From: an uncultured Chlamydiales bacterium
GTDB taxonomy: Bacteria > Chlamydiota > Chlamydiia > Chlamydiales > JAAKFR01
NCBI GenBank assembly: GCA_963699155.1
Contig: OY969414.1
Span: 96,001-160,000 of the forward strand
Length of the DNA: 64,000 bases
Reading direction: 5' to 3'
Shown in pieces: positions 32,305 through 38,788 of this stretch. Numbering within the stretch: the first letter of the stretch is position 1; every line of letters starts with the position of its first letter. Position numbers and translations under genes: made by a program. The notes beneath the pieces are model-generated. The model did not search any database. It was not told the origin of the DNA and worked only from the letters and a program-made list of their open reading frames with translations.

Positions 32305-33820
32305 GACCATTTTGACCTTCTCTATTGCTGTAGCTGCCCTCTTTCATCTCAGTGGCCTCTTTTGGCTCTATTGCTTCCCCCTCTCTTTCCAGACAAGGCA
32401 ATTTGAGAACAGCGTCAATAGCCAAAATAGTGAGGGCGACTACTGGCAGAGGAAAAAGCGTGGCGAGATTTTAGCCCAATTTTTTGGCCAGATGGCCGTA
32501 GAAAGCCCACAAGTGAAGCAGGAGCTCCATGAGCTCAAAGCTGAATATGCGCCTCCCTTAAGCCTCAGTTTTACTACGCCCATCGAACTGAAAATCTCGC
32601 ATTCCGATTTCTCCTTTCATAAAAGTCCCTCATATCAAGGAGAAAACTGGGGGAAGATCAAAGAGAGTGATCTTGCGCCAGGCTCTACCCTGATTGCACC
32701 GCTCCCTCCGAGTAACTTACTGGGCGCACCCCCTTTGGCACAACTCACTACCCAAGCTGATAGTTTCATGCAAAAAGGGGTCATCGCAGGCTCTGACCAT
32801 TTCGATATCCAAGTCGAATATGCCCCTAAGCGTTTCAGGCCTGGTTATGTCTTTAAAGTGACTTTGCTTCCCAGGGCCGATGTGGCCTTTAAAAAGATTC
32901 GTCAAAACTACTACTTTCTCTTAGACCGTTCCAATTCCATGCCACGCGGCAGATATCTTCTAAATAAGCAGGCGGTAGCTGAAGCTTTATCCCTGCTCAA
33001 AGAGGAGGATCGTTTCAATATTCTAATTTTTGACGATCGCGTTGTCCGTTTTCGCAACCATGTTGTCGACTGGTCCCCAGAGGCCTTAAAAGAGGCAACC
33101 ACCTTTTTGGAGCATCAGGGACATGGTGGCTATTTTGCCGCTACTGAGCTCTATGCCTCACTGGGGAAAATTATTCCTCAAGATGTAGCTGACAATGAGG
33201 TTCACACTGCCATCCTACTCTCTGATGGTGACAACTACCTCTCACAAGAAAAGCAGCGCTTAACCATCGGTGGATGGACTAAACGCAATCAAGGAAAGGT
33301 CGCGCTCTATACGATCACATCAGGGAGCGGGAACAATATTCCCCTGCTCGATCTTCTCAGTTCATTTAATAAAGGGGCCCACATCCATTCACAGGACCAT
33401 CGAGACATTACCAAAAGGCTTCTCTTCCTCATGCGTACCATCCAGAACCCTATCGGCAAGCAGATGGTGGCGACTGCCATTCCTGAAGACCCTTCAATGG
33501 CGGTGCTTCTCCAACCCAAGAGAAGCCGTATCCCAGATCTTTATCAAAATCGCCCCTTTGTCATTTTTGGATCGACAAACAAATTAGGCGATTTCATGCT
33601 CTTCCTCCAAGGAAAGTACTATGATCAGCTCTTCGACATCAAAAAGCGGATCCGCTTCGATCAGGCCAATTTGGGAGCCTTCTCCGTAGAACGCGGTTGG
33701 GCAGCACTTGTAGCCCAAGAATTTTACGAACGCTACTTTGAGGAAGGAGATCTCTCACTTCTCGAAGAGGCCAAGCAGCTGCTCGCTCCCCTTAACCTTC
33801 CCACACCATTCCTGGATTGA
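32297..33820 (+). CDS. Membrane-anchored von Willebrand factor A domain protein
   Basis: MIDAS motif FLLDRSNSM, DRFNILIF, AILLSDG. Confidence 0.8.
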   Translation: MNKTILTFSIAVAALFHLSGLFWLYCFPLSFQTRQFENSVNSQNSEGDYWQRKKRGEILAQFFGQMAVESPQVKQELHELKAEYAPPLSLSFTTPIELKISHSDFSFHKSPSYQGENWGKIKESDLAPGSTLIAPLPPSNLLGAPPLAQLTTQADSFMQKGVIAGSDHFDIQVEYAPKRFRPGYVFKVTLLPRADVAFKKIRQNYYFLLDRSNSMPRGRYLLNKQAVAEALSLLKEEDRFNILIFDDRVVRFRNHVVDWSPEALKEATTFLEHQGHGGYFAATELYASLGKIIPQDVADNEVHTAILLSDGDNYLSQEKQRLTIGGWTKRNQGKVALYTITSGSGNNIPLLDLLSSFNKGAHIHSQDHRDITKRLLFLMRTIQNPIGKQMVATAIPEDPSMAVLLQPKRSRIPDLYQNRPFVIFGSTNKLGDFMLFLQGKYYDQLFDIKKRIRFDQANLGAFSVERGWAALVAQEFYERYFEEGDLSLLEEAKQLLAPLNLPTPFLD

Positions 33821-34359
33821 TGCACATCATCGGCGGCAAATACAAAAAACGGCCTCTCGAATCTCCCAAAGGCGATCAGACACGCCCCACCACCTCGCAA
33901 CTGCGCGAGGCCGTTTTCAATATCTGCCAACAGAGTATCGAAAATGCCACCTTCCTCGATCTCTGCGCAGGCTCCGGCGCTATGGGTCTCGAAGCTCTCA
34001 GCCGCGGCGCCCGCCATGCCACCTTCGTCGACAGCAGCCGCACCGCCATCACCTGCATCAAAAAGAACATCGCCACCCTCAAAGTAGAGTCCCAAACGAC
34101 TGTCTATCTAACCGATGCCCTCAAAGCCCTCCATAAATTCGACACCACCTTCGACATCATCTATCTCGATCCCCCCTATGGTCTCGGCCTCAGCCTCCCC
34201 ATCCTCACCTTCCTCGACAGCCACCCCCTCCTCAACCCCGGCGGCACCCTCTTCATCGAAGAGGCCAACCTCAAACTGCCCCCACTCACCACCCTCACCC
34301 TCAAATCCGCACGCTCCATCGGCCCCGCCCAACTCTTCGAGCTTTCCTTATTTGAGTGA
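33817..34359 (+). CDS. rsmD: 16S rRNA m2G966 methyltransferase RsmD
   Basis: IIGGKYK, TRPT...REAVFN, LDLCAGSGAMGLEALSRGA, IYLDPPY. Confidence 0.95.
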   Translation: MMHIIGGKYKKRPLESPKGDQTRPTTSQLREAVFNICQQSIENATFLDLCAGSGAMGLEALSRGARHATFVDSSRTAITCIKKNIATLKVESQTTVYLTDALKALHKFDTTFDIIYLDPPYGLGLSLPILTFLDSHPLLNPGGTLFIEEANLKLPPLTTLTLKSARSIGPAQLFELSLFE

Positions 34360-36355: not shown

Positions 36356-38788
36356 TTACCGTGCGGAGCGTTCAAAGCTCTTTTTCTCTCCTACTAGTTG
36401 ATCGTTTTGGTAGGTGCAGAGCAGCTTGGGAGAGCCATCATCATAGTACTTATGGAACTTCCCATGCTTTTGACCATTTTTGTACTCCCCTTCGAAAGTG
36501 AGTACGCCTTCCTGATTCCATTCCTGGCATAAGCCAACGAGCTTGTCATGGTCATAGTGATAGATACTGGTGCTAGAGCCATCTTCATAATAGGTACGTG
36601 TAGGGCCATGGCGCACATCATCGGCAAAAGCGACTTCACGATAGACTTTGCCACTCGGATAGTAGCTCATCGCTTTGCCAGAACGGATATCATGATGAAA
36701 CTCCATCGTCATCATGAGGAGCCCCTCTGGAGAATAGAGTGTGGCAATCCCATCACGGAGGCCTTGCTTATAGAAGGTACAAGCAATTTTATTCCCTTCC
36801 TCGTTGTACTCAGAGACCTCTCCTTCCAAGAGATCATTCACAAAACGGGCATCAAGCCTTTTCACCTTACCTCGTCCCTCTTGCGGGGGATAATAAATTT
36901 GGTGGACACCCTCGCGCATATTGTTTTTGTAATGGAAGATGGCCTCTTCACCTTCAGGACCGACTTGGAAATAGCGGCCTGTCAGATCACCGTTGACATA
37001 TTCTGCTTCTTCGAGAACCTTGCCACCCTGGTCCCACTGCATTTTTTTCCCATGCAGCTTTCCCTCTTTGTAGACGATCTGAGCGGCAAGCTCTCCGTGA
37101 GGATAATAGGAAAGTTGCTCCCCATGAAGATTCCCATCCTGATAATGAAAGACGCGGGCAATAGTGGCTGTCTTACTATCTTGAGGAGGGAAATATTCGC
37201 GATGCTCCCCGACAGGCACCCCATTCTCATAAACCATCAGAGTATGAATGGAACCTTCAGGGTGCCAACTCTTGAATTCTCCAATGAGAAGGTCATCTTT
37301 AAACTGGGCCACTGTTTGGAGCTGGCCATTCTCATGATACTTCTCTTCGCTCCCTTGGCGCTTGCCTTTAACAAAGGTCGTTTTTTGGCAAAGAGTGCCA
37401 TCCGAGTACCAAATCTGGAGATCGCCGTGAGCGATTCCCTGGATGTAATTGCCTTCAAAAATCAGATCGCCCAGTTCATTCCATTCAAGCCGCTTTTGAT
37501 CGAGCTGGCCGTTTACAAAAAAGGCGTCGATCTTCTGGGTGCCATTGGGATACCACTCTTTAAATGGGCCGTCGAGTTGGCCTAGGCTATAATTTTTCTC
37601 GACTTTTGCTTGACCATTTTCAAACCACTCTCGAAAAGGGCCGTGCCACTTTTTTCCCTGAAAGGTGGCGATGAGTTTCAGTTGTCCATTTTCATGATAT
37701 TCTTTCTGTTCACCCTCTAAAGCGCCTGCGACATAGGTGGATTCGCTTTTGATTTTTCGATTGGCAAACCACTCTCTGTAGGGACCTTCGAAAGCTCCCT
37801 TCACAGTAAGATAGCTAGCTTTCAGGGTCCCATTTTCAAAATACTCTGCAATGGGCTCAAGGAGATTCCCCTTTTCGTCATAGCGAGCCTGCTTGGAAAG
37901 TTGGCCGTTGGCATAGTTCTGAAAGTGTTCCCCGACAGGAACTCCCTTTTTCCAGAGCCCACCACCAGCTCCTTGCCCATCCGCTTGGAAGTACTGCTCT
38001 TTGCCCTCCTTGACTCCATCGACATAATTGACACGATAGAGAACTTGTCCACTAGGATCATACCTTAAATGGAGCCCACAAGGCTTGCCGTAACGAAAAT
38101 CTTGCACCTCGACAATGGCCAATTCGGTTCCATAGATCAACACCGCAGGATTTTTGCCATCACCATGCAAAAGACCATCGACATAGGCGCGTGAAGCTTT
38201 TAATCCCCCATCATTTTCCTCTTTATTAAACCATTCGAGCGCATTCCCATTAGGGAGACCTTTGACATAACGGGTTTGAGAAGCGCGGGAGCTATCCTCA
38301 TGGAAGGTCAGAAACTCCCCTGTTTTTTTTCCATTTTCGTAAGCCCCCTCCTCTTTTTTGTTACCGTTGGGATAAAAGGCGACAAAAGGCCCCTGTAAAG
38401 TGCCTTTGACATATTGGGCAGTCGTTTCTAACTCGCCACTCATGCAAAAAGTTCTGACTAAGCCTTCCAAGAGGTCATTTTCGTAGCGGGCTACCTGCTG
38501 CAGATTTCCTGAAGGATAATAGAGAACAGCCACACCTTGCCGCTTCTCCCCATCGAGATCTCTCTCCTCCTGGATGCGGCCATTAGGATAAAATCGCAAC
38601 TCCTTGACCGCAACATCACCGCTCGATTGAGGCTCTCGGAAAATCACGTGAGAGGGAATTCCGTTAGCATAATTGTCGATCACTTCAGGGCGCCAGTTAG
38701 GTTGGCGGACCCTCAGACCAGTTGGATGAGGGGGTTCATTGGCGATAAGAGCTCCTGCAAGCAGCAGCAAACAAAAAATTTTACGCAC
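36356..38788 (-). CDS. Secreted MORN-variant repeat protein (YwqK-like repeats)
   Basis: GTG start after AAGGAGG; signal peptide; many Y..NG.....G.Y..G...G repeats across the whole length. Confidence 0.85.
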   Translation of the reverse strand: MRKIFCLLLLAGALIANEPPHPTGLRVRQPNWRPEVIDNYANGIPSHVIFREPQSSGDVAVKELRFYPNGRIQEERDLDGEKRQGVAVLYYPSGNLQQVARYENDLLEGLVRTFCMSGELETTAQYVKGTLQGPFVAFYPNGNKKEEGAYENGKKTGEFLTFHEDSSRASQTRYVKGLPNGNALEWFNKEENDGGLKASRAYVDGLLHGDGKNPAVLIYGTELAIVEVQDFRYGKPCGLHLRYDPSGQVLYRVNYVDGVKEGKEQYFQADGQGAGGGLWKKGVPVGEHFQNYANGQLSKQARYDEKGNLLEPIAEYFENGTLKASYLTVKGAFEGPYREWFANRKIKSESTYVAGALEGEQKEYHENGQLKLIATFQGKKWHGPFREWFENGQAKVEKNYSLGQLDGPFKEWYPNGTQKIDAFFVNGQLDQKRLEWNELGDLIFEGNYIQGIAHGDLQIWYSDGTLCQKTTFVKGKRQGSEEKYHENGQLQTVAQFKDDLLIGEFKSWHPEGSIHTLMVYENGVPVGEHREYFPPQDSKTATIARVFHYQDGNLHGEQLSYYPHGELAAQIVYKEGKLHGKKMQWDQGGKVLEEAEYVNGDLTGRYFQVGPEGEEAIFHYKNNMREGVHQIYYPPQEGRGKVKRLDARFVNDLLEGEVSEYNEEGNKIACTFYKQGLRDGIATLYSPEGLLMMTMEFHHDIRSGKAMSYYPSGKVYREVAFADDVRHGPTRTYYEDGSSTSIYHYDHDKLVGLCQEWNQEGVLTFEGEYKNGQKHGKFHKYYDDGSPKLLCTYQNDQLVGEKKSFERSAR

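Follow-up and report, generated by a model that had tools for sequence, protein, structure and literature searches.

C-rich, G-poor coding tails at transcription-unit ends in an uncultured Chlamydiales bacterium as putative Rho-loading sites

The rsmD locus

The window analyzed here is a stretch of 64,000 nucleotides (nt) from an uncultured Chlamydiales bacterium whose genome is a single contig of 2.40 Mb with 47.5% G+C (G000:C1:96001-160000). It contains rsmD, a gene of the 16S rRNA methyltransferase family, followed by a spacer, an insertion sequence (IS), a nested palindrome, and, read from the opposite strand, a gene for a MORN-repeat protein (Table 1). The 3' end of rsmD is rich in C and poor in G, and tails of the same kind recur on the coding strand at the ends of transcription units across the genome. 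These tails may be Rho-utilization (rut)-like sites written into coding sequence.

Third positions in rsmD carry C in 117 of 181 codons (C3, the share of codon third positions with C, is 0.65), and C3 reaches 0.75 over the last 60 codons. The gene ranks second in C3 among the genes of a genome whose mean C3 is 0.283. The gene calls behind this ranking are crude, i.e., the longest open reading frames (ORFs) of at least 90 codons were accepted greedily to give 2095 ORF-genes that cover 90% of the genome. The original prediction had counted 35 codons ending in C and none in G among the 40 codons at 34141-34260, and this is exact, with 4 T and 1 A at the remaining third positions. The peak (C-G)/(C+G) in a 150-nt window of the gene is 0.63, and the synonymous changes accumulated in rsmD are estimated by us at roughly 60 or more.

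The IS next to the gene is of a different age. Twelve copies of the IS in the genome are at least 95% alike, and most full-length alignments are at 99-100%. The IS has therefore been active recently, and its insertion beside rsmD is far younger than the recoding of the gene. The flanks of its 11 other copies are at background skew. The neighbors of these 11 copies are mostly other nonconserved genes. The palindrome that follows the IS belongs to a family of 8 copies in the genome with ~82-92% identity. On the far side of the island, the + strand had been described as turning G-rich; at 36356-36700 this holds for third positions (37 G, 19 C) and not for all bases (82 C, 79 G). Where a same-strand gene directly follows rsmD in relatives, it usually appears to be coaD, to judge from its translated start. 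This pairing of rsmD and coaD is widespread among the relatives and is absent here, where the island of IS and palindrome is found instead.

C-rich coding tails at unit ends

Across the genome, genes were classed as operon-internal when the next gene on the same strand starts less than 40 nt downstream, and every other gene was classed as unit-terminal; both classes are inferred from gene spacing and are proxies for position in a transcription unit. A tail was called strong when C3 is at least 0.5 over the last 60 codons. Strong tails are found in 179 of 1009 unit-terminal genes versus 27 of 720 operon-internal genes, and mean C3 over the last 60 codons is 0.339 in the former versus 0.275 in the latter (Mann-Whitney p = 3e-15). 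The 3' rise is absent from operon-internal genes (720-721 genes), compared with a C3 of 0.33-0.36 in the other classes. The same difference is found among genes with an orthologue in a congener, G002 (99/398 terminal versus 19/343 internal). The tails are borne by ordinary housekeeping genes, among them pyrF, tatD, and rsmD. Among terminal tails, 14.7% contain a 150-nt window in which (C-G)/(C+G) is 0.4 or more, compared with 5.8% of internal tails and 2.9% of gene bodies.

The bias builds up along genes. In the 621 genes of at least 400 codons, third-position (G-C)/(G+C) starts at +0.07 over the first 20 codons and has fallen to about -0.25 close to the 3' end. The gradient is alike in leading and lagging genes, and strong tails are likewise independent of the replication strand (87/493 leading, 92/516 lagging). 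Among the strong-tail genes, 86 have at least 400 codons. Their C3 of 0.60-0.68 over the last 60 codons, which is the part to which the selection criterion was applied, declines with distance from the stop codon to 0.49 at 80-100 codons, 0.39 at 140-160 codons, and 0.33 at 300 codons, with tails fading over ~100-250 codons. The tract also spans tight gene borders, where the tail of the gene upstream of a short terminal gene with a strong tail has a C3 of 0.365, versus 0.273 otherwise (p = 1e-5). A weaker mirror image is found at 5' ends, where the share of G at third positions (G3) over the first 60 codons is 0.4 or higher in 45 of 855 unit-initial genes versus 5 of 626 internal genes. The pattern is far beyond chance, and what it marks is the end of a transcription unit, read on the coding strand, rather than the surroundings of inserts on the + strand.

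How the pattern came to look like a feature of the + strand can be seen in the window itself. The original prediction described a C-to-G switch on the + strand at inserts and palindromes, and 18 intervals were scored at third positions, two of them added to its list. Skew is clear in 14 of the 18, and this mostly reflects gene orientation, as 13 of the 14 are gene 3' ends. These 13 ends are C-rich on the coding strand, with + strand genes to the left of the junction and - strand genes to the right, and the arrangement therefore reads on the + strand as C-rich going in and G-rich coming out. The remaining skewed interval, at 2770-3100, is the G-rich 5' end of mnmG (47 G and 21 C at third positions). 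All three of the intervals that face the junction with a 5' end are unbiased, i.e., 12340-12486 (13 C, 11 G), 44700-44921 (14 C, 20 G), and 54000-54160 (14 C, 13 G). At a larger scale, the cumulative GC skew of the genome has its minimum at ~370 kb and its maximum at ~1.6 Mb, and the + strand is therefore slightly C-rich overall across the window.

Table 1. Genes and repeats of the window that bear on the C-rich tails (positions within the window)
Feature	Position	Strand	Remarks
mnmG/gidA, 5' end	2768-3100	+	G-rich, C-poor; the sole clear G-rich head among the originally listed sites
Gene with moderate C-rich tail	4593-5300	+	58 C and 30 G of 127 third positions at 4900-5280
Palindromic repeat	12513-12647		Composite copy of the AACGCAAAGACG... 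family (repeat match)
tatD-family gene, C-rich tail	12667-13443	-	+ strand third positions at 12667-12900: 40 G, 8 C
TPR protein gene, C-rich tail	27613-28644	+	26 of 40 codons C-ending at 28501-28620, exactly as originally counted
Small palindromic repeat	28690-28790		AACGCAAAGACG... family; between two convergent C-rich tails
Gene with C-rich tail on coding strand	28801-29730	-	+ strand third positions at 28801-29040: 44 G, 14 C
rsmD, 16S rRNA methyltransferase family	33817-34359	+	Pfam PF03602
Spacer 3' of rsmD stop	34360-34545		Not C-rich; skew halts at the stop codon
Insertion sequence	34546-35805	+	Transposase-like ORF 34730-35821 with HTH_32/HTH_28/HTH_29 domains
Nested 396-nt palindrome	35818-36213		Directly after the IS; arms of 22, 42, and 40 nt
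MORN-repeat protein gene	36356-38824	-	3' end towards the island; weak C-rich tail
Gene with G-rich 5' and C-rich 3' end	40366-41367	+	Third positions per 40 codons: 8 C/17 G (5'), 27 C/1 G (3')
F-box protein gene	41377-42729	-	Accessory, low G+C at third positions, between two C-rich tails (family search and codon counts)
Metallophosphoesterase gene, strong C-rich tail	42790-43533	-	+ strand third positions at 42790-43050: 62 G, 7 C
Small palindromic repeat	45016-45098		AACGCAAAGACG... family, just downstream of pyrF (repeat match)
pyrF, C-rich tail	45103-45867	-	C3 0.49; raised C3 runs on into the upstream gene 45861-46466 (C3 0.37)
Solute-binding protein gene, C-rich tail	56576-57316	+	48 C and 8 G of 70 third positions at 57090-57300

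A very G-rich head is also found in the window in a glycosyltransferase-family gene (PMT_2) at 7131-8567 on the - strand, where third positions of the first 40 codons hold 26 G and 5 C. An ORF on the + strand at 8373-8903 overlaps this gene in antisense near 8450-8567.

In strong tails all codon families move alike, to 73-89% C-ending codons (Ala 0.74, Gly 0.73, Leu CTC 0.76, Arg CGC 0.73, Val 0.79, and Ile 0.89). First-position synonymous sites move as well, with TTR codons for Leu going from ~0.27-0.35 to 0.05, and purine-ending codons of the fourfold families go from ~0.40 to ~0.15. The G+C share of third positions (GC3) is 0.73 in strong tails versus 0.53 for all terminal tails. The amino acids shift too, with Glu and Lys rarer and His, Thr, and Leu commoner. 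Avoidance of G is mild in codon families that end in A or G (GAA 0.59 versus 0.51-0.56). The coding strand as a whole is without purine bias, with a purine share of 0.496.

These figures bear on two conventional accounts, which together are held to be very improbable. C-ending codons are favored over T-ending codons in many bacteria, and translational selection for them late in genes could give C-rich tails. However, the ribosomal protein cluster is not C3-rich (C3 0.17-0.29, versus a genome mean of 0.283), indicating that C-ending codons are not the translational optimum here. This account would also have to explain why the 3' rise is absent within operons and why all codon families, first-position synonymous sites included, shift uniformly. 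An assembly artefact was the other candidate, and the assembly does hold frameshift errors in conserved genes. The tails themselves keep their reading frames and protein similarity, the separately assembled congener shows the same trend, and short-read metagenome contigs agree fully with the genome over nearby pieces, including one within a C3-rich gene. A single study provides three soil-metagenome contig sets with short, low-depth pieces identical to the genome (G000:82001-102000, L085), and large parts are uncovered.

The bias is confined to coding sequence. In the 75 strong-tail genes with a downstream gap of at least 150 nt, the last 120 nt of the frame have C at 0.39-0.42 and G at 0.17-0.20, giving an all-base skew of -0.32 to -0.42. 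Past the stop codon of the same genes, the skew is -0.11 in the first 30 nt and then about 0.

Inserts, palindromes, and gene order

An association of the skew with inserts and palindromes, as the original prediction claimed, is real; however, it is not specific to inserts. The statement that insert-free junctions look unbiased stands for tight operon junctions and fails for unit ends with conserved synteny, where tail C3 is 0.349 compared with 0.281 for genes internal in both species. Among terminal genes that have an orthologue, 79 of 226 tails are strong when the downstream neighbor differs from that of the orthologue, versus 11 of 94 with conserved synteny. A neighbor was called nonconserved when it has no match in the sampled 1.6 of 2.59 Mb (62%) of one congener, G002; tails next to such neighbors are strong in 61 of 171 cases versus 38 of 227 (p = 1e-6). 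The congener shows this contrast as well, at lower amplitude (p = 0.002).

The accessory blocks, defined as nonconserved genes with conserved flanks on both sides, number 149; convergent gene ends flank 54 of them, and divergent ends flank 27. Inward C-skew in the flanks of the blocks is 0.381 for tails and 0.066 for heads. The sign change on the + strand that suggested a miniature replication origin at each site does exist, and it comes largely from this excess of inserts between convergent ends. The two sides of the 54 convergent blocks show a correlation of 0.17, which is not significant, and the two sides of a junction are uncorrelated more generally (Spearman 0.05 in 233 convergent pairs and -0.01 in 326 tandem junctions).

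The small palindromes of Table 1 belong to one family (AACGCAAAGACG...), for which BLAST finds 36 imperfect copies of 60-112 nt in the genome. They are built from GCAAAGAC-like units and are nearly always intergenic, mostly at gene 3' ends; among motif-defined copies, the center lies inside an ORF in 1 of 24. Strong tails make up 24 of the 41 tails that adjoin a small palindrome, versus a background of 16%. The 12 heads that adjoin one are G-rich, with an inward skew of 0.295 versus 0.013 in the background, and in heads and tails alike the skew decays over ~300-600 nt. Within 250 nt of the 36 copies, coding flanks have an inward C-skew of 0.25-0.37, and noncoding flanks range without trend from -0.20 to +0.20. 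One copy of the small palindrome also lies downstream of rsmD in another genus (L008 in G013), where rsmD is not C-rich (C3 0.24).

The first of the two models in the original prediction was a strand-asymmetric mutagenic process that starts from hairpins or inserts. Hairpins at palindromes or insertion hot spots would be nicked or broken, and resection outward from the break with biased fill-in would leave a local, origin-like skew switch. Such a process could account for skew on both sides of the small palindromes and its decay with distance, for stronger tails without conserved synteny, and for lineage-specificity, as could follow from a change in a repair enzyme. Four observations disfavor it. 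The noncoding DNA between gene and palindrome, which is nearest to the supposed source, is unskewed. The bias is bound to gene orientation, and heads next to accessory blocks are hardly skewed. The two sides of a junction are uncorrelated. Finally, bacterial mutation is usually AT-ward and proceeds mainly through transitions, and a GC3 of up to 0.73 would require bulk purine-to-C transversions, unlike the asymmetry left by deamination. The lack of a difference between leading and lagging genes, the tails at insert-free unit ends with conserved synteny, and the background skew beside the 11 other recent IS copies also speak against mutation, which is left unsupported and appears unlikely as the source of the tails.

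Comparison of 625 orthologous pairs between this genome and the congener indicates that tails follow the gene order of each genome. Genes that are terminal only in the genome under study have a tail C3 of 0.394 there and 0.247 in the congener, and genes terminal in both have 0.411 and 0.298. Genes that are internal in both have 0.281 and 0.245, and those terminal only in the congener have 0.340 versus 0.285. Tail C3 is correlated between the two (Spearman 0.46), and the congener orthologues of strong-tail genes are already higher in tail C3 (0.337 versus 0.260).

This correlation opens the way to a filter on insertion sites, in which inserts and palindromes accumulate at strong terminators that were already present. 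Such a filter concerns the association with inserts and not the nature of the tails. It would agree with the preference of accessory blocks for convergent ends and with the recent arrival of the IS beside rsmD. However, the amplitude at the same genes is far higher in this genome than in the congener, the genes that are terminal only here indicate that tails also arise after a change of context, and the other recent IS copies are not found beside strong tails. Site filtering is a distinctly doubtful explanation.

The distribution of C-rich rsmD genes is narrow. The related genomes are nonindependent samples, and rsmD orthologues at 55 loci have a C3 of 0.12-0.48, except in the genome under study and at L065 (0.60); the congeners G002, G001, and G003 have 0.27, 0.18, and 0.22. 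Terminal rsmD genes are clearly C-rich at L065 (tail C3 0.72) and L076 (0.45), with G3 0.10, in other Parachlamydiales metagenome bins. The phenomenon is therefore not confined to this genus and has arisen, or persists, outside it. In the 44 relatives with known context, rsmD is directly followed by a same-strand gene in 15, and excess C3 does not differ significantly between the 29 terminal and the 15 internal copies (+0.017 versus -0.030, p = 0.28); 11 of the 55 loci were left out of this test because of a contig end, no ORF call, or no background gene. The effect is lineage-specific, being conspicuous only in this genus and a few other lineages.

Rho as candidate reader and comparison with known systems

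To our knowledge, no bacterial factor other than Rho has been described as reading long stretches of C-rich, G-poor RNA where units end. We give about an even chance to the reading that the C-rich, G-poor tails are selected, rut-like loading sites for Rho inside coding tails. The polarity of the tracts, their restriction to unit ends, their decay with distance, and the way they track gene order fit a signal at the level of the transcript. In strong tails, the C-rich, G-poor tract extends over at least the roughly 80 nt of RNA expected of a rut site. Of the two models originally offered, Rho-loading tracts on transcripts that enter accessory DNA fit best, and the model must be widened to unit ends in general, including those with conserved synteny. 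Binding of Rho to the tracts and the ending of transcripts at them are inferred rather than observed. Descriptions of rut sites give them a C-rich, G-poor composition and place release 100-200 nt further along the RNA (PMC10319736). In Bacillus subtilis, what chiefly characterizes Rho-terminated fragments is an excess of C over G across more than 150 nt, and Rho avoidance shapes the use of purines and pyrimidines at wobble positions (PMC13323073). In Salmonella, NusG and Rho keep outside transcripts from entering silenced foreign DNA (PMC6797219).

The proposed sequence of events starts with selection, which would have written tracts into the last ~100-250 codons of the last gene in a unit. 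After ribosome release at the stop codon, the C-rich tail would be naked and Rho could load, releasing RNA polymerase within the short spacer before the neighbor is entered. Hairpins of the palindromic repeat family may act as pause sites. In unit-initial genes, the G-rich, C-poor heads would serve to keep Rho away from the start of the transcript; equivalently, antisense RNA that leaves such a gene would carry a C-rich tract. The tails might be strongest beside accessory DNA because read-through is most harmful there or because inserts persist where they are shielded.

A need for Rho would be in keeping with the scarcity of other terminators. Sites resembling a hairpin with a T-tract are found at 11-14% of inferred unit ends in G000, G002, G016, and G025, versus 1-3% in shuffled sequence, and the share of unit ends with a canonical intrinsic terminator is about 12%. 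From sequence, the majority of transcription units in these chlamydiae thus seem to lack such a terminator. Loss of intrinsic terminators was considered as the cause of the difference between lineages and was set aside because the share is alike in all four genomes.

Several observations weigh against Rho loading at the tails. A rut site is expected in untranslated or ribosome-free RNA; here the tract lies inside the frame and ends at the stop codon, and it could act only after ribosome release or with loose coupling. The 3' spacer is not C-rich even when it is long, which calls for geometry or ribosome release as an added explanation. The presence of a canonical terminator is unrelated to tail strength, and the energy of downstream hairpins is only weakly related to it (Spearman -0.10). 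Beside small palindromes, the 12 heads and the 41 tails show a similar degree of skew, which looks independent of orientation. In the 1.6 Mb sampled from the congener, the effect is weak (terminal 0.268 versus internal 0.235, p = 1e-7; strong tails 21/656 versus 2/401); in G025 from the same order it is marginal (p = 0.048), and in a 400-kb sample of G016 from another genus it was undetected (p = 0.56). Among the 29 terminal orthologues of rsmD, no more than 2 are clearly C-rich. Rho itself is available to all 28 relatives whose rho gene is intact, yet the effect is weak elsewhere, and a lineage-specific factor is needed. Selection on synonymous sites that is strong enough to bring every codon family to ~75% C is surprising for low-expression genes of an intracellular organism. 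Finally, the rho frame in this assembly is split over at least four frames by single-base shifts.

Short spacers that force the tract into the gene were considered and rejected: among core terminal genes, tail strength shows no clear trend with gap size.

The rho gene is present at one locus, G000:C1:89955-91200 (L021:1189-2610), about 5 kb before the window. The N-terminal domain of its product aligns with the solved RNA-binding domain of Escherichia coli Rho and keeps the motifs DGFGFLRS and DIYVSP, which we take to hold the C-binding pocket. The pieces of rho are as conserved as the intact Rho of relatives, and rho is intact in 28 of the 31 genomes searched. The gene tuf (G000:C1:1232886-1234072) is split in the same way, 8 of 702 well-matched congener proteins are split in this genome, 5 of the 8 at 81% identity or more and thus among the most conserved, and one short-read metagenome contig is without the extra base at two of the rho breaks. 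The broken frame is therefore likely a consensus error of metagenome assembly and not a loss of the gene. A real rho pseudogene tied to the tails was set aside on the same grounds, as tuf and essential conserved genes are split alike and the contig lacks the two extra bases. In the soil-metagenome sets mentioned above, many diverged pieces stack on the conserved part of rho.

Other functions of the RNA 3' end could be served by the same tracts, which might slow 3'-to-5' exonucleases or endonucleases or bind a C-specific protein other than Rho. This would suit the limitation of the tracts to the coding part of terminal genes, their decay from the 3' end, and a bias directed at C in particular, with only mild avoidance of G in codon families that end in A or G. 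We know of no such C-specific 3' factor in these bacteria. A function of this kind leaves the enhancement beside nonconserved neighbors and the G-rich heads unexplained; moreover, protective hairpins should lessen the need for it, yet tails are strongest beside palindromes. It is quite unlikely to be the main role of the tails. There is also a minor chance that the tails are something else altogether, i.e., the footprint of an undescribed strand-specific process at unit borders and palindromes in this lineage. A repair or recombination pathway could be putting C into the strand directed at a hairpin, or a new insulation system that binds C-specifically to RNA or single-stranded DNA could be shielding accessory DNA from incoming transcription in both directions.

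A word search of the literature turned up no account of tails of this kind, C-rich and within the last coding sequence of an operon. The statement that nothing described so far explains the pattern nevertheless goes too far, given that rut sites (PMC10319736) and the shaping of wobble positions by Rho (PMC13323073) have been published. The likeness to the GC skew switch at a replication origin is limited to the change of the + strand from C-rich to G-rich. Unlike an origin skew, the pattern here follows gene orientation, is absent from noncoding DNA, raises GC3, and is independent of the replication strand. The case is also a caution that a strong local codon bias or GC skew need not be a sign of expression level, horizontal transfer, or replication.

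The small palindromes resemble the repetitive extragenic palindromic (REP) sequences and bacterial interspersed mosaic elements (BIMEs) of enterobacteria. In both cases, tens of intergenic copies of one short imperfect palindrome are found, mostly at gene 3' ends (41 tails versus 12 heads here). The sequence family is unrelated, and a role of the palindromes of this genome in termination or pausing is putative. If they do have this role, the arrangement would resemble BIME-linked, Rho-dependent attenuation.

We know of no silencer in this organism. The NusG/Rho barrier of Salmonella offers a parallel in that transcripts from neighbors are stopped before they enter horizontally acquired DNA, as the tails are strongest beside nonconserved genes. 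In contrast, the Salmonella effect was reported to depend little on rut binding, and the part of that report drawn on here makes no mention of recoded core genes at the flanks (Bossi et al. 2019, PMC6797219).

Predictors of Rho-dependent terminators that rely on composition seek a tract of C over G followed by a pause hairpin. Like the E. coli type of terminator, the tails form a C-rich, G-poor tract of 100-300 nt just before the inferred unit end, often followed by a hairpin, and the genome has a rho gene with a conserved RNA-binding domain (PMC10319736). The tails differ from these terminators in lying inside coding sequence, with near-complete synonymous recoding and amino acid shifts, in having a gradient of up to ~250 codons, and in being conspicuous only in this lineage; their dependence on Rho is putative.

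The closest comparison is with the coding-strand bias attributed to Rho (Dierksheide et al. 2026, PMC13323073), where wobble positions and amino acid choice are likewise shaped by Rho action. That bias acts gene-wide, with purines at wobble positions serving to avoid Rho where transcription runs ahead of translation (runaway transcription), and a term search of the paper for gene ends found nothing. The bias in the present genome is instead positional, resembling avoidance at unit starts and recruitment at unit ends. If the tails are rut sites, Rho would write a positional code into synonymous sites, with avoidance where a unit starts and recruitment where it ends. About 18% of unit ends reach ~75% C-ending codons, and this code would be rewritten as gene order changes, most strongly at the borders of accessory DNA. 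The effect of Rho on codon usage would then extend from a gene-wide bias to a local, readable signal, and operon ends and the insulation of foreign DNA could be predictable from sequence alone in uncultured bacteria.

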